Below are positions 3,196-58,486 of a stretch of DNA of 64,000 bases, in pieces (the stretch's first letter is position 1; every line of letters starts with the position of its first letter). The position numbers were made by a program, and so were the translations under genes. The stretch covers positions 5,033 to 69,032 of the forward strand of contig DASPKW010000178.1 of the NCBI GenBank assembly GCA_035627895.1. Direction: 5' to 3'. The notes below the pieces were generated by a model. It saw nothing but the letters and a program-made list of their open reading frames with translations. It was not told the DNA's origin and did no database searches. This stretch comes from Tepidisphaeraceae bacterium (lineage in GTDB: Bacteria; Planctomycetota; Phycisphaerae; Tepidisphaerales; Tepidisphaeraceae).

Positions 3196-3390
3196 CTTCT
3201 AAGAGCCGACTCCCGTAACCCGCGGTCTCGTCCGAAGTAGATACCGCTCCACTCAGTTTTGCGACCATTCCCTGTTTCGATCAATTCTTAGAAGATTTCG
3301 GTTGCATGTTCGGGCGCTATTAGGATAACGTTGCGATCCGACGCGTCCACCGGCGACGCGGGATCGGACGGAACCGATTCCGGAGGGTAC

Positions 3391-4857
3391 ATGGCCTCGG
3401 TCAAGGCATGGAAGGTTCAGGAATCGGGCGAGCCCGCGTTCCCGTCCGACTTCGAGATCGCCCGCAAGGCGGTGCTCCAGGTCACGGACATCAAGACCAA
3501 CCACAATAAGTATTACGCGATCGAGCTGCACCACGCGACCAAGGACGCGGGCGACTTCGCGTTCCGCGTGTTCACGCACTACGGGCGCACGGACGATTTG
3601 GAGAACAACCCGAACGCCGGCCAGAAGGAGTGCCGGTACTACGCGACGATGGCCGAGGCCGACGCGTGCTACCAGACGATCTACCGCGAGAAGACCAACC
3701 CGCGCAAGGGGTACAAAGAGGTCTCGCTCGCGTCGACCAAGATCGGCTCGCACAAGGCCCGCGGCACGAGCGCCGGCGAAGTCGACGCCAAGACGCTCGA
3801 GAAACTCGCCAAGGCGAAGGCCGAGAAGGCCGCCAAGGAGGGCAAGCCCGTCGAGAAGCCCAAGACGCTGGACCTCGCGCCCGGCGTCCAAGACCTGGTC
3901 CGCTACATCTTCTCCGAGGCCACCAGCGCGCTGACGAGCACCGTTGCCGCCAAGATCACCGCCAACGGCATCGAGACGCCGCTCGGCGTGCTGACGATCG
4001 GACAGATCGAAAAGGGCGAGAAGATTTTGCTCGATTTGTACGAACTCTTCGAGAAGAAGAAATCTTCGAGCCTGCGCGGCAAGCTCGAAGAGTTGTCGGG
4101 CGAGTTTTACACGGTGATCCCGCACCGGATCGGGCGGACGCGCGAGGCTGTCGCCGCCGCCGTCATCGACAACATGACCGCGTTCGCCCAGAAGCAGGAA
4201 ACGCTGCAGCTCATGAAGGACATGTTGCAGGTCAACGGCGAAGAAGGGAGCGTGCTGTACGATGCGCAGGTGGACGCGCAGTACCTGTCGCTAGGCGCCG
4301 AGCTCGGCGCGCTGAACGCCGACCATCCGGCGTACCGGCAGATCGCCGACCACGTGATCAATAGCCAAGTGAAGTCGAAGTCGATCAAGGTGCAGAACGT
4401 CTTCACACTGAAGCGGCCGGGCGAGTGGGAGAGCTTCACCGAGAAGATGGACAACCAGCGCCTGCTCTTTCACGGGTCGCGCATCCAGAACTGGGTCGGC
4501 ATCCTGTCGCGCGGGATCCTGATGCCGAAGATCGTGGTGAGCCTTGGCGTGAACCGGACGGACGCCGGGTGGCTCGGGCACGGGATCTACTTCGGCGACG
4601 CGTCGTGCACGTCGGCGTTTTACACGACGCCGGGGAAGAAGAAGACCCGCCTGATGGCCGTCACGCGCGTCGCGCTGGGCAAGATGAAGGACTACACACA
4701 GATCACGTACGGCCTGTCGGCACCGCCCGAGGGGTACGACAGTTGCCACGGCGTGCGGAACACGGCCAAGGCGCCGTCGCAGTTCGCCGACGACGAGTAC
4801 GTCATCTACGACCCCCGGCAGCACCGGCAGGAGTACCTGGTCGAGTTCACGGTGTAA
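3391..4857 (+). CDS. poly(ADP-ribose) polymerase homologue: WGR domain + PARP helical regulatory domain + PARP catalytic domain
   Basis: WGR-like N-terminus (NHNKYYAIELHH...FRVFTHYGRTDD). Helical domain (VQDLVRYIFSE...LGVLTIGQIEKGEKILLDLYE). Catalytic H-Y-E signature (LLFHGSRIQNWVGILSRGI, HGIYFGD, DDEYVIYD). GGAGGG lies just upstream of ATG 3391. Confidence 0.9.
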   Translation: MASVKAWKVQESGEPAFPSDFEIARKAVLQVTDIKTNHNKYYAIELHHATKDAGDFAFRVFTHYGRTDDLENNPNAGQKECRYYATMAEADACYQTIYREKTNPRKGYKEVSLASTKIGSHKARGTSAGEVDAKTLEKLAKAKAEKAAKEGKPVEKPKTLDLAPGVQDLVRYIFSEATSALTSTVAAKITANGIETPLGVLTIGQIEKGEKILLDLYELFEKKKSSSLRGKLEELSGEFYTVIPHRIGRTREAVAAAVIDNMTAFAQKQETLQLMKDMLQVNGEEGSVLYDAQVDAQYLSLGAELGALNADHPAYRQIADHVINSQVKSKSIKVQNVFTLKRPGEWESFTEKMDNQRLLFHGSRIQNWVGILSRGILMPKIVVSLGVNRTDAGWLGHGIYFGDASCTSAFYTTPGKKKTRLMAVTRVALGKMKDYTQITYGLSAPPEGYDSCHGVRNTAKAPSQFADDEYVIYDPRQHRQEYLVEFTV

Positions 4858-4955
4858 CTCCGTGGCACGGGCTACCAGCCGCGTTCAATGTTTCGATCAG
4901 CGCGTCCGTCTTGAGATCACTGAGGTCCACGGGCTGGTAGCCCGTGCCACCGGAG
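4858..4955 (+). promoter_or_regulatory. long-stem hairpin between PARP stop and macrodomain start; the 3' arm plus flank pairs with the macrodomain Shine-Dalgarno
   Basis: Positions 4862-4880 (GTGGCACGGGCTACCAGCC) are perfectly complementary to 4932-4950. CTCC at 4858-4861 can pair with GGAG at 4952-4955 across a 1-nt bulge. The stem starts 1 nt after the PARP stop codon (4855-4857). GGAG lies 5 nt before ATG 4961. Confidence 0.6.
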
Positions 4956-4960
4956 CACTT

Positions 4961-5692
4961 ATGCTGGTCCGCGTAACCCTGGTCGACATCAATCCGAAAA
5001 TGGTCGAGGCCTGGCGATCCACGTTCGAAGCCAACCCGGAGGTCGAGATCGTCAAGGGGTCGATGCTCGAGCAGCCGGTGAGCGCCTGGGTCTCGCCGAC
5101 CAACGCGCGCGGCAGCATGGACGGCGGACTCGACGCCGTCATCAAACGACACCTCGGCCCCGGCATCGAGTCCAACCTCCAGGCGCAGATCATCCGCAAG
5201 TACGGGATGCTGAACCTCCCGGTCGGCCACGCGGTGGCGGTGCCGACGGGTCAGGTGCAGCCGCGCTACCTCATCTCGACCCCGACGATGGTCGGGTCGA
5301 GCGAGGACATCAGCGACTCGATGAACGTCGCCCTGGCGTGCGCGGCCGCGTTCCAAGCCGTCCACATGCAGAACGCCGCCGAGCCGGGGAGCGTCCGGTC
5401 GGTCGCGCTGCCCGGCCTCGGGGCCAACACCGGTCAGGTCCCGGTCGAGATCTGCGCCGACCTGATGTGGACGGCCTACAACCTGTTCCGCGAGCGCGAG
5501 TTCGACGACTTCGGGGCGATGCGCGTCGCGCTGCAGGACATTCTCGGTGACCTCGGCCCGATGGGAACGGTCGGCAAGTCGTCGGCCAGCGGCGGCGTAC
5601 CCAAGAAAGCTAAACCGGCGCCCGCCGTAAGCACCGCGCCGTCCGAGCCTGCGCCGAAGAAGAACGACGAGGACTTCGACGACTTCGGGTAA
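4961..5692 (+). CDS. macrodomain protein (ADP-ribose binding/hydrolase fold) with Lys/Pro-rich, acidic-ended tail
   Basis: Macro motifs VSPTNARGSMDGGLDAVI and VALPGLGANTGQVP. Start at ATG 4961 (MLVRVTLVDIN) preceded by GGAG. The upstream part of ORF 4862-5692 lies inside the hairpin. Confidence 0.85.
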   Translation: MLVRVTLVDINPKMVEAWRSTFEANPEVEIVKGSMLEQPVSAWVSPTNARGSMDGGLDAVIKRHLGPGIESNLQAQIIRKYGMLNLPVGHAVAVPTGQVQPRYLISTPTMVGSSEDISDSMNVALACAAAFQAVHMQNAAEPGSVRSVALPGLGANTGQVPVEICADLMWTAYNLFREREFDDFGAMRVALQDILGDLGPMGTVGKSSASGGVPKKAKPAPAVSTAPSEPAPKKNDEDFDDFG

Positions 5693-5803
5693 GCCGCGAA
5701 GCGTTTGGCCGCCGAATCCGCTCGATTACGCCGGAGGCGGAGCCTCAGGGTAATGCCCCGGATCGAATCGGACAGTTCCCCGCCCGCAACTCTGATCGCT
5801 GCC

Positions 5804-8332
5804 ATGACCCCCGCCCCCCTACGCCTCTTCAACCCGAACGGCCCCGACCGCGTCGCGGTCGTCTGGGTCGAGCCGGCGTACGGGCGGGCCGATGCGTTTC
5901 TCCTCAAACTCGCGCGCGGCCAGCGCAGCGGGCAGCTCGGCACCGGCGCCACCTACGGCCCGTACACCGAGGCCGAACTCGCAATCCCGCATGCGCAACT
6001 CGCCACCGCCCTGCTCCGCGAGGGCTTCCTCCCCGGCGGCGCGCACGGCGCGATGGACCGCCTCAAGTCCCCGGACCCCGCCGTCCGCGGGCGCGCCGCG
6101 ACCCGCCTCGGGTGGGGCGGCCACCCGCACGCCGTCGACGCGCTCCTCGCGCTCCTCCCGACCGCCGTCGACGAGGCGTGCGCGGTCATCGACGCGCTCG
6201 GCCGCCTCGGCGACCCGCGGGCTCTGCCGGCGATCCGCCCTTACGCCGCCCGCAAGCTCCTCTCCCGCCGCCGGTCCGCCGTCGAGGCCATGCGCAACCT
6301 CGGCGACGCCGAGGGCCTGATGCACGCCCGCGCCCGCACACTCGATGAACTTTCCGAGAACGTCCGCGAGGTCCTGATCCCCCTCGAAGGTGGCGAGCCG
6401 ACCGAAAAGGCGGTCTCGGCCATCGTTGAAGCGGTCACCGCCGGCGACCCGAAGCGCCGCGGGCTGACCGCCGACCTTTTGTACGAGCGCGCCACGCCCA
6501 CTGCCGTCCGGGCCGCGGTCGCGATCGTCGACCAGCTCGAGTTCGACCAGCCGTTCGCCTGGCGGTACGTGAAGAGTGTCCTCAAGCGTGCCCTGCTCCG
6601 CGACGACTTCCGCACGTTCGGCTGGCTGATTCATGAGATCGAGACCCGCGGCCGCGTCACCCGTGGCCAGCGCCATAGCGTCAAATCCGGCTACGACGGC
6701 GCCGACCGCCTCACGCTCATATTCGGCGTCCGCACCCGCGACTACCTCCGCCGCGCCACCTGGCGCCATTTGCGGACGATCGCCGCCCACCGCCCGCATC
6801 TCTACTCGGCGGCGGCCGCCGAGGCGCTGATTCACTACGCGCCCACCGACGCCGAGCCGCCGCGCAAGCGCTACGGCGCGTACGCCAGCGCCTACCTGTT
6901 CAACCGCATCCTCTTCGCCGGCGGCGACCGGCTCGAGCTGATCGGCATGAAGTTCCGCTTGCGCAAAGGCACCGCCCTCACCCCGCCGGCCGGGGCGCGC
7001 GAGGAGTCGTTCCCCGCCCTGTGGGACGCTTACCCCCAGGCCTTTGTGCGCGTCCTCGCCGCCGCGCGGACGGTCGAGGCGCAGACCTTCGCCCGTGCCG
7101 GCGTCGCCCGCCACCCGGGCGTCATGTCGGCCGCATCGATCGACGATTTGATCGGCATGCTCGACGCCCCGCACGAGCCCACCGTCTCCCTGGCGATGGC
7201 CGAGATCACTCGCCGGTTCGACCCCGCCAACCCAGACTGGGCCCTGATCGAGCGGCTTACGATGGACCCGCGCAACGCCGTCGCCGACCTCGGCCTCAAC
7301 TTCCTGGCCGACCACGTCGCCGCCTGGGCCAACGACCCCGCGCGCGTCGCCGCGCTCCTCGCCTCCCCCAGCGCCCGCGCCCGGGCCCTCGTCGCCGACC
7401 GCGTCATACTCTGGCTCGGCACGGACCACTCGACCCACGCCGAGCTCGCCGATCGGCTGATCGTCATCCTCCGCTCCCCCGAGCCCGCGCCCGGCCTGCA
7501 CGAGAGCGTCGCCCGCGTCGCCCGAGAGGCGCTGGCCGACGCCCTCTCGGCCCGCCTGTCGACCGACGAACTATTGAAGTGGATCGCGACCGGCTCGCCC
7601 GCGGCGCAAGGCGTCGCCGGCGACCTGCTCGGCCGCCGGCCCGAGGCCGTCGCCGCGCTCGGGCTCGTCGGCGTCGCCGCGCTGGCGCAGCACCCGCTGG
7701 CGGCGGTTCGGAGCGGCGGGATCGCCCTGCTACGGTCGGCGAAGGCGAGTTGGGCGACGGACCCGTCCGTCCTGCTCGTCCTGATCGAGACCGACTGGCG
7801 CGACACCCGCTCCGCTGCCCTCGCCCTGCTCCGCGACCACCTCGACGTCGCCCGCACCGGCCCCGCCGCCCTCCTCGGCATGCTCGACTCGAATCGCACC
7901 GACGTGCAGGACGTCGCGATCGACCTGGCGCGCCAGAACGCGCTGCTCCTCGACCTTCCCGCCATGGCGGCGCGCCTCGTCGAGCACCCGCACCCCCACA
8001 TGCGCCAGTTCACGCTCGAGACGGTCATCGCCCACCTCCCGGCCGGCCCCGCGCCCCTCGCCGGCCTCGAACGCTTCTGCCGCACGATCCTCCTCGACAC
8101 CTGGCCGAGCCGCCGCGAGAAGAACGACCTGATCGCCTTCCTCGGCGAGCGCGGGCTCGCGGGCGAAGAGCAGGCCCGCATCGCCGCGCGCCTGCTCGAC
8201 GAAACGCTCGCCCTCGCGGCCAAGTACGACTTCGAGCGCGCGCTCGCCGCCCTCGCCCGGCTCCGCATGTCCTACCCGCGAATCGAATCCGGCGTGCGCG
8301 TGCCCGAGCTCCAGCCGGGGGGTGCCGCATGA
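5804..8332 (+). CDS. large HEAT/ARM-repeat protein (retron accessory ARM-like candidate)
   Basis: Repeated PBS-lyase/HEAT-like units (DPAVRGRAATRLGWGGHPHAVDALLALL, DALGRLGDPRALPAIRP, RRSAVEAMRNLGD and others further along the protein). Alpha-helical, Leu/Ala-rich throughout. Stop overlaps the next start (ATGA at 8329-8332). The start is uncertain: 5804, 5753 or 5705. Confidence 0.8.
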   Translation: MTPAPLRLFNPNGPDRVAVVWVEPAYGRADAFLLKLARGQRSGQLGTGATYGPYTEAELAIPHAQLATALLREGFLPGGAHGAMDRLKSPDPAVRGRAATRLGWGGHPHAVDALLALLPTAVDEACAVIDALGRLGDPRALPAIRPYAARKLLSRRRSAVEAMRNLGDAEGLMHARARTLDELSENVREVLIPLEGGEPTEKAVSAIVEAVTAGDPKRRGLTADLLYERATPTAVRAAVAIVDQLEFDQPFAWRYVKSVLKRALLRDDFRTFGWLIHEIETRGRVTRGQRHSVKSGYDGADRLTLIFGVRTRDYLRRATWRHLRTIAAHRPHLYSAAAAEALIHYAPTDAEPPRKRYGAYASAYLFNRILFAGGDRLELIGMKFRLRKGTALTPPAGAREESFPALWDAYPQAFVRVLAAARTVEAQTFARAGVARHPGVMSAASIDDLIGMLDAPHEPTVSLAMAEITRRFDPANPDWALIERLTMDPRNAVADLGLNFLADHVAAWANDPARVAALLASPSARARALVADRVILWLGTDHSTHAELADRLIVILRSPEPAPGLHESVARVAREALADALSARLSTDELLKWIATGSPAAQGVAGDLLGRRPEAVAALGLVGVAALAQHPLAAVRSGGIALLRSAKASWATDPSVLLVLIETDWRDTRSAALALLRDHLDVARTGPAALLGMLDSNRTDVQDVAIDLARQNALLLDLPAMAARLVEHPHPHMRQFTLETVIAHLPAGPAPLAGLERFCRTILLDTWPSRREKNDLIAFLGERGLAGEEQARIAARLLDETLALAAKYDFERALAALARLRMSYPRIESGVRVPELQPGGAA

Positions 8333-10035
8333 TCCTCCAGACCCGCTATGCCGGCACCAGCGGGGTGATCAACGGCATGGCCGTCGCCCACCTCGCGTTC
8401 GCCACCAACATGCTCCGCGAGCCGACTTTGTTCGAGGGCACGCTCGCCCAGCCGCTCCTGATGCGCGAGGCCATGGGCGCCTTGCACGGCGTCGTCGTCA
8501 GCGACCACCGCTACCACCCGCGCGACCGCCTCGCGTTCTTCGCCTGGCTCGCCGAACAGGACCGCGCCTTCCTCGCCGGCCTCGCCGCCAAGGGCCAGAA
8601 GGCGCGCCAGCGCGCCGAGGCGATCAACGTGCGCCTGGCCGAACTGGACGAAGCGCGCGAGCACCGCCTCCGCCCGTTCCACGCCGCCCGCCGCCGCTAC
8701 TTCGATTACGCCTACGAGTTGGAGTACGAGCTCCAGTACCTGCTCGACCCGGTCATCACCGTCCACCCGGATGAGATCTCCTTCGAGGCCTTTTCCCGCG
8801 ACCAGAGCACCTACGCCCGCCTCGCCGCCCGGCACGAATTGTTCGCCAAAGTCGGCCACTTCGAGTGCGGCACGACCAATATCGACTTCAGCGCCCGCCT
8901 GGCGACCGAAATGCAGCGGATGCGCAGCTACCGCGACACCCGCTTCACCTTCGACCCCGGCGGGTTCACCGTCGCCCACGCCGACGTATCGGCCGCACAC
9001 AAGGAGAAGAAGATCGAGCTCCCCGAGAGCTGGGTCATGGGCTTCCTCCAGGTCCACAGCACGATGACGCTGGAACTGACCCGGCTGCGAATCGCCCTGG
9101 TCGACATGTACAACGTCTGCCGGTTTTTGCGCCGCCGAAAGGCGCGAAAGTCGCCCCGCGCCCTCCGCTACGAGCTCACGCCCGGCCAGGTCCCGCGCGT
9201 CGTCCTCGAGCCGTGGGAACACGTGATCGAGCTTGCGTCGTCCCCCGTCTACGACGGCCCGGCCTTCAAATCCGTGCGGACGTGGGGCCGCGACCGCCTC
9301 CAGGCCATCGCGCGGCTTCTGCCGGTGTGCCGCGGCGTCGACGTCTACCTCGCCGGGTTCGGCCTGCCCACGATCTACGTCGCCGACCTCGGCCCGGCCG
9401 CCTCGTTCACCCTCGCGCTCTCCGGCTGGACCGACAACGACTGGACCGGCACCACCGCCCGCTTCGACCTGCTCACCCGCCCGCTCACGATCTCGGCCGA
9501 CGAATTGATGCGCGCGTACCACGCCATGCGCGACGTGCGCGTGTCGACCGATGCCGGCCTCGCGCAGCGCACCGGCCTGACTGTCCCCCAGGCGCGCAGC
9601 GCGCTCTCGTATCTCTGTCAGGTCGGCCGAGCCATGTATGACCTCGCCGGCCGCACGTACCGCCACCGCGACTTGTTCGCCGAGCCGTTCACGCCCGGCC
9701 AAGCCGCGGCCGTCGTCAGTCCGGCTGCCGAGGAGTCCGACCCGCGCGCCAACATCGCCCGCGAGATCGTCGACTCCGACAACATCCGCATCATCGCCCG
9801 CCGCCCCGTCCCGGGCGGGTACAAGGTCAGCGGCAGCGCCAAAAGCATGGGCGACAACACGCGCCACCGCCCCCTCTTCCACATCAGCGCCGCCGGCCAC
9901 CTCATTGAGGCCGAGTGCTCGTGCGCGTTCTACAAAAAGTACAAGCTGACCCAGGGCCCGTGCGAACACGTGCTCGCCCTGCGCTTGGCCCACATGACCC
10001 GACTCGATTCGGAGAAAGGAGGCACCACGGGATGA
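8329..10035 (+). CDS. winged-helix + SWIM zinc-finger protein (WH-SWIM retron accessory candidate)
   Basis: C-terminal SWIM signature CSCAFYKKYKLTQGPCEHVLAL (CxC..CxH). WH-like segment LAQRTGLTVPQARSALSYLCQVGRAMYD. The real start is ATG 8329 (MILQTRYAG), coupled to the upstream stop. The upstream 436 codons of ORF 7021-10035 are an out-of-frame overlap with the HEAT gene. Confidence 0.85.
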   Translation: MILQTRYAGTSGVINGMAVAHLAFATNMLREPTLFEGTLAQPLLMREAMGALHGVVVSDHRYHPRDRLAFFAWLAEQDRAFLAGLAAKGQKARQRAEAINVRLAELDEAREHRLRPFHAARRRYFDYAYELEYELQYLLDPVITVHPDEISFEAFSRDQSTYARLAARHELFAKVGHFECGTTNIDFSARLATEMQRMRSYRDTRFTFDPGGFTVAHADVSAAHKEKKIELPESWVMGFLQVHSTMTLELTRLRIALVDMYNVCRFLRRRKARKSPRALRYELTPGQVPRVVLEPWEHVIELASSPVYDGPAFKSVRTWGRDRLQAIARLLPVCRGVDVYLAGFGLPTIYVADLGPAASFTLALSGWTDNDWTGTTARFDLLTRPLTISADELMRAYHAMRDVRVSTDAGLAQRTGLTVPQARSALSYLCQVGRAMYDLAGRTYRHRDLFAEPFTPGQAAAVVSPAAEESDPRANIAREIVDSDNIRIIARRPVPGGYKVSGSAKSMGDNTRHRPLFHISAAGHLIEAECSCAFYKKYKLTQGPCEHVLALRLAHMTRLDSEKGGTTG

Positions 10036-10040
10036 TCACC

Positions 10041-10080
10041 GGAGGGCGAGGCTCCGTCCCGGGAGGGCGAGGCTCCGTCC
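10041..10080. repeat. tandem direct repeat, 2 x GGAGGGCGAGGCTCCGTCC (period 21)
   Basis: Identical 19-mers at 10041-10059 and 10062-10080, immediately after the SWIM stop. Confidence 0.9.
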
Positions 10081-10088
10081 GAGCCGTT

Positions 10089-10314
10089 CGAAAGCCGCGG
10101 AGCGGCGACAGCCAATTGCCCACGGCGCGAGCCGTGGGTGGTGCAACCGCGCGACCGGCGAAAGCCCCGTAGGGGTGACAGCGGCGCGACAAGGCGCACC
10201 GCTGCCGCCCCTGCCGGGGCTCGACCGCCCGAGGATCCGAACGCCGGCTGCGACGACGACCATACCCACGACTCACGTCGTGGGCTATCGGCTGCCGCCG
10301 CTCCGCGGCTTCGA
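10089..10314. repeat. pair of inverted REP-like elements, family 2 (AAGCCGCGGAGCGGCG.CAGCC..GCCCACG.C-loop-G.CGTGGG)
   Basis: Copy A at 10089-10141 and copy B at 10264-10314 are reverse complements of each other at roughly 85% identity. Each contains its own small hairpin (CCCACGGC/GCCGTGGG and CCCACGAC/GTCGTGGG). Confidence 0.8.
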
Positions 10315-10350
10315 TCGCACCGACCGATCAACCCCCCGAATTGACTCGAC

Positions 10351-10606
10351 AATCCGATCCGTGACCGGTCGGCAGTGGCCGCGGGACTTAGCAACCTGTG
10401 CGGCGTTACGCCGCGCGTGCCCCCGTGCCTGCCATTCGTCACGTCCCCGTTCGTCACTCGCGGAATACGCCCCACCCGGCCCGCTGCTGGGTGGGATCTC
10501 CGATCCCGCGGGCTTCGGGTGGGGCGTATTCCGCTTAAGTGGAACGAGCACGTCCTCGGGACGTTCGTAAGCGACGGCCCACTGCCGACCGGTCACGGAT
10601 CGGGTT
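10351..10606 (+). ncRNA. candidate retron non-coding RNA (msr/msd)
   Basis: A perfect 25-bp inverted repeat (10354-10378 with 10579-10603, extendable to 28 bp with one G:U) closes the structure. Inside are a small hairpin (10400-10414), a long roughly 75-nt hairpin (10460-10534, about 31 bp in three helices) and a further hairpin (10544-10568). The element lies on the same strand as the retron-type RT, 212 nt upstream of it. Confidence 0.5.
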
Positions 10607-10817
10607 AAAGCACAACGCTAATGAGCGCAACGAACGACACCTCGTTTAGCCGCGACCCGAAGGGCGAGCGACAGCGCCGCCCGCAGGCGAGCGCGTCGAA
10701 CCTCGAACCTCCGCACGCACTCGCGACGCCTTCCCCGCCATTGAAACCCGCTGCCGCCGTTCATCGCAGGGACGTTCGACGTCTGTCCGCCTCGCCCCAC
10801 CGCACTTTCACCCCGTC

Positions 10818-12209
10818 ATGCCCAGCTCCGAAAAGGCCATCCTCTACCACCGCATCACCCAGCTCCCCCCGATGGTGCTGCTGGACCGCATGCGCCTCCA
10901 CGGCTTCTGGCCCGCCGGGCAAGGCCTGCCCCCAGACCCGCCCGAGGAATCCGCCGAGCGCGCCAAGCTCACCGTCGAACTGGCCAACCTCCAGCCCGGC
11001 GGGGCGACGCCACAGGAAGCCGAGCACCTCCTCGCCGCCGAGCGCAAGCGCCGCTGGGCCGAGAGCAAGAAGCGCCGCGCCGAGCGCAAACAAGCCCGCC
11101 TTAAAGCCCACCAGGCCTGGCTCGACACTTGGAACGCCGCCCGGGCCATCTCGATCACTCACCTCGGCGAAGGCGTCAGCGGCGGGCTCGCGTTCAACCT
11201 CAGCGACGCCCCCCTGCTCGCCAGCCGCAGCCTGCCCGTCCTGCACGACGCCGCGCAACTCGCCGCCGCCATCCGCATCCCGCTCGCCACGCTCCGCTGG
11301 CTCACGTACCACCGCCGCGGCGCCACCCTCGTCCACTACCACCGCTACGACGTCGCCAAGAAGACCGGCAAGGCCCGGTCCATCTCCGCCCCCAAGCCGG
11401 CGCTCAAAGGCGCGCAGGCGTGGGTGCTGGAGCACGTGCTGTCGAGGGTGCCCGCCGAGCCGCAGGTCCACGGCTTCGTCCCCGGCCGGTCGATCGTCTC
11501 CAACGCCGCGCCCCACGTCGGCCGCGCGGTCGTCATCAACCTCGACCTGAAAGACTTCTTCCCCTCGATCACGTTCCGGCGGGTGAAGGGCGTCTTCGAA
11601 GCGCTCGGCTACAGCGAACAGGTCGCCACCGTCCTCGCACTCCTCTGTACCGAGCCCCCGCGCGTCCCGGCCGAGGTGCGCGGGAAGCGCTACCACGTCG
11701 CGCTCGGCGAGCGCGTCCTGCCGCAGGGGGCATCGACCAGTCCGGCGATCACCAACCTCCTCTGCCGAAAGCTCGACAAGCGTCTGACCGGCCTGGCCGC
11801 CCGCCTCGGCTTCACCTACACCCGCTACGCCGACGACCTCACCTTCTCGTCGGACGACACGAGCCGAATCAACTGGCTCTTCCGCGGCGTGCGGATGATC
11901 CTCAAGGCCGAGGGCCTCACCGAGCACGCCGACAAGACCCACGTCATGCGCCGTTCGGGCCGGCAGGAGGTCACCGGCGTCACCGTCAACGCCCGGACGA
12001 CGCTAGGGCGAGACGAGGCGCGCGAGCTCCGCGCCACTCTCCACAACGCCGCGAAGCACGGCCTCGAAAGTCAGAACCGCGAAAAACGCCCAAACTTCGC
12101 CGCCTACCTGCGTGGCCGCGTCGCCTTCGCCAGCATGGTCGACCCCGTCCGCGCCCCCCAATGGCAGTCGAAGCTCCGAGCCGCGCTCGGCGGGGCTGCC
12201 TCTACCTGA
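10818..12209 (+). CDS. retron-type reverse transcriptase with roughly 130-aa N-terminal extension
   Basis: RT motifs INLDLKDFFPSI, LPQGASTSPAITNL and YTRYADDLTFS. Retron hallmarks NAxxH (SNAAPH) and VTG (QEVTGVTVN). Colinear with my recollection of the Ec86 RT sequence (ISAP..LK..Q.W.L; LGY; LD.R..G). Confidence 0.9.
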   Translation: MPSSEKAILYHRITQLPPMVLLDRMRLHGFWPAGQGLPPDPPEESAERAKLTVELANLQPGGATPQEAEHLLAAERKRRWAESKKRRAERKQARLKAHQAWLDTWNAARAISITHLGEGVSGGLAFNLSDAPLLASRSLPVLHDAAQLAAAIRIPLATLRWLTYHRRGATLVHYHRYDVAKKTGKARSISAPKPALKGAQAWVLEHVLSRVPAEPQVHGFVPGRSIVSNAAPHVGRAVVINLDLKDFFPSITFRRVKGVFEALGYSEQVATVLALLCTEPPRVPAEVRGKRYHVALGERVLPQGASTSPAITNLLCRKLDKRLTGLAARLGFTYTRYADDLTFSSDDTSRINWLFRGVRMILKAEGLTEHADKTHVMRRSGRQEVTGVTVNARTTLGRDEARELRATLHNAAKHGLESQNREKRPNFAAYLRGRVAFASMVDPVRAPQWQSKLRAALGGAAST

Positions 12210-13257
12210 TCAACCGCGCCAGTTCGAGAAGTTCCTCCGACCGCTCCACCTCCCGCACCCACTCCTCCGGCAGCGCCCCGATGCCGCACCGCGCCCCGCA
12301 CAGCGCGCCCGCCAGCGTCGCGATGCTGTCGCTGTCGCCCGGCGTGTTTGCCCCTTCGAGGATCGCCGCCGCCGGGTCGTCCGGGTGGCGGCAGAACACG
12401 TACGCCGCCGCCGCGATCGCCTCGTGGGCCGCCCACGCCCGCAGGCGGTCCAGCGTCACCTCGGGCCCGACCTTCTCCCGCGCGTCGGCGATCGCGTCGA
12501 CCATCATCCCTGCCGTCGGCGCGCTATAGCGCAGCGCCGCCGCGGTCATCTCCGACGCGACGTAATCGGGCTCCTCGCCGCGCAGGGCCAGCGCCGTCCC
12601 CACGGCCATCGCCGCCGACGCCGCCAGCGCGATCGGGTCCCGATGCGTCAGCTTCGAATGCTGCACGGCCCACTCTTCCGCCTTCCGCAAGTCGTCGCGA
12701 AACACCAGCCCGAACGGGTACGCCCGCATGACCGACCCACACCCCCCCGCCGTCGCCCCGCCCGCCGTCGACCAGTGCGCGCCCGCCGCCAGCGCCCGGC
12801 ACCCGGCCAGGCACGCGTTCCCAGGCGCGCGGTGCCCGCCCTGCGGCCGCTCCGACCACTCGACAAATCGCTTCGCCATCCCCGTCATCGCCCGGTCCAG
12901 ATCCTCGCGTTCGTCCAGCAGCGCCCGCAGCACGCACTCGGCCATCTGCGTGTCGTCCGTGTACGGCGCCACGCGCCGCCCGTCCGCCCCCTGCCGGTAC
13001 AACTCAAACTTCCGCACCCCGCCCGGCCCATACCGCTCGCAGATCGCCCCCATGGACATGAACTCCGTCGGATGCCCCATCGCGTCCCCGATCGCCCCGC
13101 CCAACACGGCCCCCACCATCCGCTCCTCCAAAGTCGGCGCCGCCGCCGCCGCCGCCGCCGGACGCGCTCCCTTGCCCGCCGGCGAGCCGCTCTCCCCTCC
13201 GATCGAGTGCGGCACCCCGTCGAATAGACCGAACGTGGAGGAATCGCCTTCTGCCAT
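12202..13257 (-). CDS. ADP-ribosylglycohydrolase (ARH/DraG family)
   Basis: ARH motifs GAVLGGAIGDAMGHPTEF, YTDDTQM and GDSDSIATLAGALCGA. The 3' end overlaps the RT 3' end by 8 nt (convergent). An alternative start at 13119 would skip the poly-Ala leader. Confidence 0.85.
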   Translation of the reverse strand: MAEGDSSTFGLFDGVPHSIGGESGSPAGKGARPAAAAAAAPTLEERMVGAVLGGAIGDAMGHPTEFMSMGAICERYGPGGVRKFELYRQGADGRRVAPYTDDTQMAECVLRALLDEREDLDRAMTGMAKRFVEWSERPQGGHRAPGNACLAGCRALAAGAHWSTAGGATAGGCGSVMRAYPFGLVFRDDLRKAEEWAVQHSKLTHRDPIALAASAAMAVGTALALRGEEPDYVASEMTAAALRYSAPTAGMMVDAIADAREKVGPEVTLDRLRAWAAHEAIAAAAYVFCRHPDDPAAAILEGANTPGDSDSIATLAGALCGARCGIGALPEEWVREVERSEELLELARLIR

Positions 13258-39795: not shown

Positions 39796-39901
39796 CGCAC
39801 GGGATTGTACCGTCCGCCGAGCGATTCGCGTGCCCGGTTCCCATTCTGAGGGAGCCCAGCGACTTGTCGCGGGACGAAGTCGAACGGCGCCCGTTCGCGG
39901 C

Positions 39902-40008
39902 GCTCGGAGTTCGCCCTTTAGGGTGTAAGGGGGAAACCCGAAAGCGCGGCTTGGTGCCGTTCCAACACTGCAAATCCTCCCTTGCACGCTAAAGCGTGAA
40001 CTCCGAGC
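39902..40008. repeat. 107-bp palindromic MITE/REP-like element, family 1, second copy
   Basis: Arms at 39902-39933 and 39976-40008 share the GCTCGGAGTTC..TTTAG.GTG.AAGGGGG consensus with 366-473. Confidence 0.8.
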
Positions 40009-40016
40009 GCCGCGGA

Positions 40017-51753: not shown

Positions 51754-51840
51754 GTCATCCCGAGGTACTCCGAGGGATCTGGCCCTGAACCTCGGGGCCT
51801 GGACTCTCGAGCTAGATCCTTCGGAGTACCTCAGGATGAC
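51754..51840. repeat. 87-bp palindromic element, family 3 (GTCATCC.GAG....GA.GGATCT termini)
   Basis: Arm 51754-51780 is the reverse complement of 51814-51840 with two G:U-compatible mismatches. A related copy lies at 58334-58442. Confidence 0.8.
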
Positions 51841-58309: not shown

Positions 58310-58333
58310 ACACCCCAGGCGAGCTTAACAAAC

Positions 58334-58442
58334 CGTCATCCTGAGCGCAGCGAAGGATCTCGCCTCGATCGAAATGGCCTGTTCGGCTTGCCAGGCAGGC
58401 CGCCAGGGCGAAGCAAGATCCTTCGCTCCGCTCAGGATGACG
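58334..58442. repeat. 109-bp palindromic element, family 3
   Basis: CGTCATCCTGAGCGCAGCGAAGGATCT (58334-58360) faces AGATCCTTCGCTCCGCTCAGGATGACG (58416-58442), between hsp20 and lon. Confidence 0.8.
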
Positions 58443-58486
58443 GTGAGGCGTTTCGGTAGCCACTTTAAGAACTGACGAGAACATTC

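Follow-up and report, generated by a model that had tools for sequence, protein, structure and literature searches.

A probable type XIII retron msr-msd RNA gene in a planctomycete genome and its predicted priming guanosine

Type XIII retrons and the planctomycete locus

Type XIII retrons carry reverse transcriptases (RTs) of clade 10 and are linked to a SWIM zinc-finger protein (cluster 114), whose gene is usually preceded by one for a HEAT/ARM or WGR-like protein (cluster 216) (Mestre et al. 2020, PMC7736814). They have a non-coding RNA (ncRNA) structure of their own, and the type includes the validated myxobacterial retrons Mx162, Mx65, Sa163 and Ne144 (Retron-Mxa1, Mxa2, Sau1 and Nex2) (PMC7736814). 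With these retrons as members of the family, a remark on the long a1/a2 repeats of myxobacterial retrons, made in a preliminary description of the DNA studied here, was apt. A metagenome survey of 2026 counted 26 type XIII retrons in Planctomycetota, and because the type has already been counted in that phylum, the presence of such an element in a planctomycete is in itself unsurprising. Our PDB search returned no type XIII structure, and the literature that we searched contained no mechanism for the type. The second system considered here is Retron-Eco1 (Ec86, type II-A), the RT of which is the closest solved structure to the RT of our locus (E 8.5e-47). In Ec86, the junction reads CUUA-G-C on the 5′ side and CG-UAAG on the 3′ side, and the a1/a2 repeat is about 12 bp long.

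We identify positions 10351-10606 of the plus strand as the msr-msd ncRNA gene of a planctomycete retron of type XIII, with a probability of roughly 0.9. Coordinates refer to the window, by which we mean the whole 64-kb stretch of DNA that was analysed. The element is 256 bases long, and as was expected of a retron ncRNA in the preliminary description, an RT gene follows it on the same strand (Table 1). This RT scores 525 bits against the PADLOC RT_XIII model, versus 361 bits for the next-best model. Pfam RVT_1 spans residues 180-390 and is preceded by an N-terminal extension. In an alignment with 18 homologues, the NAXXH (N229/A230/H233), YADD (Y337-D340) and VTG (V385-G387) motifs are invariant. 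Upstream, the SWIM gene and the HEAT/ARM-WGR gene complete the arrangement; among the 92 sequences compared, 81 have a SWIM homologue within 6-7 kb of the RT, nearly always upstream. As judged from its gene content, the locus is a complete type XIII retron made up of the ncRNA, the HEAT/ARM-WGR and SWIM genes and the RT. The earlier proposal that the element is a retron msr/msd RNA is supported by the RT_XIII, SWIM_XIII and HEAT/ARM-WGR_XIII neighbourhood, conservation across the family, and covarying stems.

Table 1. Features of the retron locus and of the neighbouring genes, in window coordinates.
Feature	Position	Strand	Basis or comment
PARP (WGR-PARP_reg-PARP)	3331-4857	+	Pfam; probably part of an associated module
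Macro-domain gene	4862-5692	+	Pfam; probably part of an associated module
HEAT/ARM-repeat (WGR_XIII) accessory protein	5705-8332	+	PADLOC WGR_XIII E 2.3e-97, HEAT-ARM_XIII E 6.9e-65; Pfam HEAT_2
SWIM_XIII accessory protein (Mestre cluster 114 type)	8329-10035	+	PADLOC SWIM_XIII E 7e-176
a1, 5′ arm of closing inverted repeat	10351-10378	+	25 bp perfect plus 3 bp with one G:U
Linker/internal loop between main a1/a2 stem and junction helix	10379-10386	+	Sequence and length vary among close relatives
Junction helix, 5′ strand CUUA	10387-10390	+	Pairs with UAAG 10568-10571; covaries across the family
Predicted priming (branching) G, in UUAGC	10391	+	Invariant column in 53-sequence alignment
msr hairpin, 8 bp, loop UUA	10398-10416 (10398-10405 with 10409-10416)	+	99.8% of cells paired; 6/8 pairs with compensatory changes
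Remaining msr segment with conserved CAUUCGUCA motif	10421-10440	+	C10437 and C10440 invariant
msd stem-loop, ~113 nt	10441-10553	+	Lower interrupted stem 10441-10457 with 10539-10553; upper hairpin 10460-10534
3′ end of msd template	10554-10567	+	Conserved CG (C10566, G10567) opposite the predicted priming G
Junction helix, 3′ strand UAAG	10568-10571	+	Pairs with CUUA 10387-10390
a2, 3′ arm of closing inverted repeat	10579-10606	+	Repeat search, sequence
Retron RT, type XIII, 463 aa	10818-12209	+	PADLOC RT_XIII E 3.8e-158; Pfam RVT_1
ADP-ribosylglycohydrolase	12202-13257	-	Pfam ADP_ribosyl_GH E 7e-63; probably associated

Several traits place the locus beside Mx162, Mx65, Sa163 and Ne144. It shares with type XIII the N-terminal RT extension, a best score against RT_XIII, and SWIM and HEAT/ARM-WGR genes upstream. 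The RNA has the long a1/a2 repeat, short msr hairpin(s) and single long msd stem-loop of the type (the likeness to Mx162 is by description), and nhmmer finds it homologous to myxobacterial, cyanobacterial, acidobacterial and other type XIII ncRNAs. Unlike those four retrons, it has a planctomycete host, an internal loop before the junction helix, a 211-nt spacer before the RT, and PARP, Macro and ADP-ribosylglycohydrolase genes nearby.

The junction has the same geometry as that of Ec86 (CUUA-G-C opposite CG-UAAG). An assignment to type II-A was rejected, as the RT matches RT_II-A at only E 2e-76 compared with 4e-158 for RT_XIII, and its neighbours are SWIM and HEAT proteins rather than a deoxyribosyltransferase-like protein. 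Ec86 differs further in its 86-nt msDNA, in an RT that lacks the N-terminal extension, and in its nucleoside deoxyribosyltransferase-like effector. Similarity to type II-A is limited to the junction motif.

Structure and conservation of the RNA element

The element is strongly structured. Folded as RNA, the segment 10340-10620 reaches -173.8 kcal/mol, against -118.4 ± 5.2 kcal/mol in dinucleotide shuffles (z = -10.65), and none of the 200 shuffles folded as well; this fold had been proposed as a check in the preliminary description, and it bears out the structure suggested there. Inverted repeats of at least 22 nt with arms within 400 nt of each other are found nine times in the window, and two of these nine are parts of the element. 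The outer repeat has arms of 28 nt that are 96% complementary and lie 200 nt apart. Its core had been read correctly at the outset, with 10354-10378 being the exact reverse complement of 10579-10603, and with AAT (10351-10353) extending the stem against GTT (10604-10606) through one G:U pair. Within the linker that follows a1, C10379-C10380 can pair with G10576-G10577.

Inside the closing stem, the layout agrees with the multi-hairpin core that was described before, with a short msr hairpin on the 5′ side followed by a long, covarying msd stem-loop. The 6-bp hairpin noted at 10400-10414 is real and forms the core of the conserved 8-bp msr hairpin, which a possible 3-bp helix would extend (G10391, C10392 and A10393 with C10420, G10419 and U10418). 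A small alternative hairpin (10424-10427 with 10440-10443) in the following segment is predicted only in a 9-sequence alignment. The lower msd stem opens with A10441, which is invariant. The repeat search pairs the msd arms at 10441-10478 and 10516-10553 (38 nt, 79% complementary). The long hairpin at 10460-10534 is composite in the way first described, but it is only the upper part of the msd, which extends over about 113 nt and not over the 75 nt given to it at that time. [quoted passage not shown] No Rfam family covers the element, retron families included. Apart from two Acido-Lenti-1 motifs, the sole Rfam hit in its vicinity was a sub-threshold match to mir-4433 on the long hairpin, which was dismissed as a chance match to a GC-rich palindrome.

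The element was compared with related loci, of which 91 were collected (80 from genomes and 11 around close RT homologues). The 80 contain no Myxococcus xanthus locus, and a protein search seeded with a Myxococcaceae RT led to Archangiaceae-type RTs of 505-534 aa. Homology and covariation were assessed with an iterated nhmmer profile, MAFFT alignment, RNAalifold and pair counting. In close relatives, whose RTs are 60-73% identical to ours, the element is again found after the SWIM gene and ahead of the RT. From a1 to a2 it covers 220-282 nt in these loci, and 7-92 nt separate it from the RT start. For two of them (L081 and L083), the ncRNA is 88-89% identical to that of the window, while the RT proteins are only 72-73% identical. 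When nine sequences are aligned, TTAGC is invariant and the msr hairpin almost so; the msd hairpin changes in sequence yet stays paired, and compensatory changes are seen in 33 of 68 predicted pairs.

The iterated nhmmer search extended this comparison to 53 non-identical related loci with a homologous RNA 5′ of the RT, in hosts from Planctomycetota, Myxococcota, Acidobacteriota, Cyanobacteriota, Bacteroidota and Pseudomonadota. In the RNAalifold consensus of this 53-sequence alignment, 86.7% of cells pair, versus 36-41% when the partners are slid by 1-3 columns, and the covariation score is 0.600 versus 0.11-0.15 for the slid controls. Changes on both sides occur in 47 of the 55 consensus pairs, and the observed values were reached by 0 of 500 shuffles. 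Compensatory changes affect every pair of the upper msd stem (24/24) and most of those in the lower stem (10/14). The survival of the element in orthologous loci, with stems that covary, had been named beforehand as the property on which its identification would depend, and the 47 covarying pairs across 53 loci bear it out.

The a1/a2 arms are too variable to align, and for these we compared the duplex energies of native and non-native arms. In 50 related loci, whose arm sequences differ from one another, native duplexes average -48 kcal/mol versus -24 kcal/mol for non-native ones, and 34 of the 50 a1 arms pair best with their own a2. Because loops and bulges differ between loci, the ungapped a1/a2 register is uninformative beyond the 4-bp junction helix. 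The alignment also bears on the strand. G:U pairs are frequent in the msr hairpin and would be C-A mismatches on the other strand; the RNA is therefore assigned to the plus strand, as is the RT. Taken as patterns of substitution and pairing, these comparisons show that selection acts on the closing stem, on the junction helix, on the msr hairpin and along the entire msd stem.

Predicted priming guanosine and msDNA

In retrons, the priming G usually belongs to a TAGC at the inner edge of the closing stem, and reverse transcription of Ec86 starts on a cytosine (Simon et al., PMC6868368). G10391 matches this published description, being in a TAGC context and immediately 3′ of the covarying 4-bp junction helix. 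The motif UUAGC at 10388-10392 had been noticed earlier, and its resemblance to the Ec86 branch context stands. The accompanying view that the branching G could not be assigned can be revised to a prediction, since the junction helix ends right 5′ of G10391. The apparent gap of 10 nt between motif and stem is due to an internal loop that lies between the 28-bp a1/a2 stem and the junction helix. In many family members a1 and a2 pair without a break, and the junction helix is just the innermost part of their stem.

Only nine columns of the 53-sequence alignment are invariant, and G10391 is among them. The junction helix before it takes several forms across the family (CTTA/TAAG, CCTG/CAGG, CCTT/AAGG, TCTT/AAGA and ACTT/AAGT); because a 3′ partner had to offer three complementary bases to be accepted, only helix positions 1, 3 (by pair types) and 4 are independently informative here. 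The spacing between the invariant G and the G opposite it is nearly constant: it falls within 174-181 nt in 44 of 49 loci, and the window has 176 nt. From the invariant G, the pairing of CUUA with UAAG before a conserved CG, the covariation of this helix and the constant G-G distance, we predict in silico and with good confidence that G10391 is the priming G, and that C10566 is likely the first template base. RNAalifold pairs G10391 with C10420 in the 3-bp helix next to the msr hairpin, so the exact conformation of G10391 is uncertain.

An alternative is that the element is a retron ncRNA that primes from a different G, for example G10375 in a conserved GGCAG(C/U)GG motif within a1, or one of G10381-G10385, where the 28-bp stem has its inner end. 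The priming contexts reported for members of the same retron type lend this idea some weight, as priming from CAGC is reported for Mx162 and Sa163, and the contexts across Mx162, Sa163 and Mx65 are CAGC or GAGC (PMC6868368), unlike the UUAGC of the window. A CAGC/CAGT motif does occur inside a1 of the planctomycete clade, where GGCAGCGG is semi-conserved, with G10375 in a CAGU context here and in CAGC in most close relatives. The long perfect stem in the window also ends about 10 nt before UUAGC. We nevertheless consider this alternative unlikely. Among the candidate guanosines, only G10391 is invariant in all 53 sequences, and the bases flanking it covary with the bases after the conserved CG. 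The GGCAGYGG motif is missing outside the planctomycete clade, G10375 is buried in a perfect duplex, and the a1/a2 stem reaches the invariant G uninterrupted in most members, for example through 8 bp in L010, L022, L039 and L045 and 7 bp in L004 and L007. In most of the homologues that we found, the equivalent context is CUUGC, unlike the UUAGC of the window.

With G10391 as the predicted primer, a pathway can be proposed for the element. A plus-strand transcript, the strand of which is supported by the conserved G:U pairs, would be made and would fold through a1-a2 pairing, the internal loop and then CUUA/UAAG, which in silico sets G10391 opposite G10567. By homology with characterised retrons, the RT would recognise the msr hairpin and the junction, and the 2′-OH of G10391 would prime cDNA synthesis on C10566. 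The msd would then be copied leftwards, from 10553 to 10441, with a stop that we guess to lie near the conserved CAUUCGUCA segment. Such copying would yield a branched msDNA of about 120-130 nt with 5′-GAACGTCCCGAGGACG at its start. A single long DNA hairpin is expected of it, and the DNA fold computed for the reverse complement of 10436-10566 is of this kind (z = -8.6). By analogy with other retrons, the msDNA-RT complex may hold the SWIM and HEAT proteins, or sense through them, for phage defence.

Flanking DNA, ADP-ribosylation genes and tandem cassettes

Both flanks of the element differ from those of its relatives. Between a2 and the RT start codon lie 211 nt (10607-10817), versus the 7-92 nt of close relatives; this stretch is unstructured (z = -0.01) and has no counterpart there. 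It had been named as a place to which msDNA might map instead, and a second RNA or alternative template at this position was rejected on account of the missing structure, the missing homology and the short spacers of the relatives. On the other side, a1 begins 315 nt beyond the SWIM stop codon, and within this interval lies a separate imperfect palindrome of about 225 nt (about 10089-10315; z = -9.5), the arms of which are two inverted matches to Rfam Acido-Lenti-1 (50.6 and 39.9 bits). This palindrome is absent from the nine related loci compared. From this comparison, the palindrome and the 211-nt spacer look like lineage-specific insertions around an otherwise intact cassette.

The long spacer and the palindrome imply that the cassette has been disturbed in this lineage and is possibly poorly expressed. 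Taken further, the cassette could be decaying or silent, with the flanking insertions uncoupling the ncRNA from its promoter or from the RT, and with no msDNA made. Such a loss would fit the two flanking stretches that lack a counterpart in related loci, and disruption does occur in this retron family, as one relative (L087) has an insertion sequence with a DDE_3 transposase between the ncRNA and the RT. A scan for promoters and terminators gave nothing useful and found no sigma-70-like promoter, which would point the same way, but the promoter scan used the sigma-70 consensus only, and this consensus fits planctomycetes poorly. Against decay, the RT reading frame is full length with every family-invariant residue, the accessory genes are intact, and the ncRNA retains all conserved positions and pairs. 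We therefore regard a silent cassette as improbable, slightly more so than a different priming G.

Finally, that the element is a structured sequence never reverse transcribed (a cis-regulatory leader, a terminator or insulator, or a REP/MITE-like palindrome) is very improbable, for although it lacks an Rfam family and the window holds other palindromic elements (358-481, 39896-40014, 51754-51840, 58332-58444 and the neighbouring 10092-10311), it occurs just once in the window, it lies 5′ of a retron RT on the same strand in related loci of several phyla, its architecture fits retrons (a closing repeat, an msr hairpin, a TAGC whose G is invariant, and a long stem that varies and covaries), and a REP/MITE would show neither RT-linked covariation nor G:U pairs that fit one strand only.

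The type XIII retron of the window has further genes around it that relate to ADP-ribosylation. The PARP, Macro, HEAT and SWIM genes are tightly packed: two of the junctions are gaps of 4 and 12 nt, and the third is a 4-nt overlap. The ADP-ribosylglycohydrolase gene shares 8 nt with the 3′ end of the RT gene, with which it is convergent. The alignment of the PARP with PARP2 covers the entire protein, and the H-Y-E residues are retained. Among the relatives, the closest planctomycete loci and the Myxococcota MAG loci L003-L007 likewise have PARP and Macro homologues 5′ of HEAT-SWIM-ncRNA-RT, and the outer flanks differ. The exceptions are the planctomycete loci L091 (no called Macro gene) and L088 (neither PARP nor Macro), and L003 (Macro, with no PARP detected). 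Among the 92 sequences compared, PARP and Macro genes are found in 12-15 and a glycohydrolase nearby in 10. Every sequence with PARP, Macro or glycohydrolase genes has an RT at least 53% identical to that of the window, and in two homologues (P0092 and P0108) the glycohydrolase is fused to the RT. The module is missing from more distant type XIII loci, and we found no link between retrons and PARP in the literature searched. We tentatively suggest that this retron subclade may be functionally coupled to an ADP-ribosylation module made up of a PARP2-like WGR-HD-ART protein, a Macro protein and an ADP-ribosylglycohydrolase.

The ncRNA itself can be present in more than one copy elsewhere in the family. 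Five distant relatives carry tandem cassettes with two or three ncRNAs before a single RT. The tandem copies are near-identical in the msr and have unrelated upper msd stems.

What is new here is a well-supported planctomycete addition, from a Tepidisphaeraceae MAG, to the type XIII (myxobacterial-type) retrons. For the family as a whole, the 53-sequence structural alignment is a usable resource, and it comes with a testable prediction, in which the priming G lies in UUAGC here and in CUUGC in most relatives, and the product is a hairpin msDNA of about 120-130 nt. Two leads also follow from the comparison, namely the tandem ncRNA cassettes with different msd stems in relatives, and the PARP/Macro/ADP-ribosylglycohydrolase module of the subclade. 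If the coupling to this module is true, the DNA-binding WGR-PARP would either sense the msDNA (or the loss or modification that it undergoes in infection) or use it as a substrate. The effector output would then be ADP-ribosylation or NAD+ consumption, with the Macro protein and the glycohydrolase serving as erasers or antitoxins.

ADP-ribosylation genes around the retron

Surveying the genes around the retron allowed us to place it next to putative ADP-ribosylation functions, namely a PARP2-like gene and a Macro-domain gene directly upstream of the retron HEAT and SWIM genes, and an ADP-ribosylglycohydrolase gene that adjoins the RT gene on the opposite strand. The PARP2-like protein has the domain order WGR-PARP_reg-PARP, with H-Y-E residues, and the PARP, Macro, HEAT and SWIM genes are closely spaced: two of the junctions between them are gaps, of 4 and 12 nt, and at the third the neighbouring genes overlap by 4 nt. 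The observation on PARP, Macro and glycohydrolase genes concerns the window and the related loci L003-L007, L018 and L081-L091. PARP and Macro recur, in Planctomycetota and Myxococcota loci with differing outer flanks, beside an RT subclade at least 53% identical to the window RT; one or both are missing in a few loci of this subclade, and the module was not found in the more distant type XIII loci compared. A glycohydrolase-RT fusion is present in two homologues (P0092 and P0108). No paper connecting retrons with PARP was found in the literature searched.

Coordinates of features in the window and in related loci (L-prefixed)
Feature	Position	Strand	Remark
PARP2-like and Macro-domain genes	3331-5692	+	
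Direct repeat, 21 nt, tandem (TCACCGGAGGGCGAGGCTCCG / TCCCGGGAGGGCGAGGCTCCG)	10036-10077		just 3′ of SWIM stop codon
Imperfect palindrome, ~225 nt	10089-10315		RNA fold z = -9.5
Acido-Lenti-1 (Rfam), one arm	10093-10138	-	39.9 bits
Acido-Lenti-1 (Rfam), other arm	10265-10310	+	50.6 bits
Unstructured spacer, 211 nt	10607-10817		a2 to RT start codon
ADP-ribosylglycohydrolase gene	12202-13257	-	
REP-like palindromes, one family	358-481; 39896-40014		
REP-like palindromes, other family	51754-51840; 58332-58444		
Tandem msr-msd cassettes	L012 1016-1525		
Tandem msr-msd cassettes	L020 894-1520		
Tandem msr-msd cassettes	L037 5245-5803		
Tandem msr-msd cassettes	L040 2245-3061		
Tandem msr-msd cassettes	L050 5166-5880		
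Retron ncRNA	L087 about 5100-5326		
IS with DDE_3 transposase	L087 5604-6647	-	
RT gene	L087 7001-8410		

Palindromes and spacers

Between the SWIM gene and a1 lies an imperfect palindrome whose arms are two Acido-Lenti-1 matches, inverted relative to each other. Because no counterpart occurs in nine related loci, it looks like a lineage-specific insertion, possibly MITE-like; a CGA repeat of 3 bp may flank it. No function is known for Acido-Lenti-1. Elsewhere in the window, two families of REP-like palindromic elements were observed, with arms of 30-52 nt, loops of 20-47 nt and motifs common to both members of each pair.

Each copy of the repeat behind the SWIM gene contains a small hairpin. 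The spacer between a2 and the RT start shows no homology in related loci and spans 211 nt, whereas this distance is 7-92 nt in close relatives. In the planctomycete relative L087, an IS splits the retron ncRNA from the RT gene.

Tandem msr-msd cassettes in relatives

In five related loci, just one type XIII RT is preceded by two or three msr-msd cassettes in tandem. Every cassette has its own a1/a2 and the msr is near-identical between copies, while the upper msd stems are unrelated in sequence; therefore, one RT may produce several different msDNAs in these loci.
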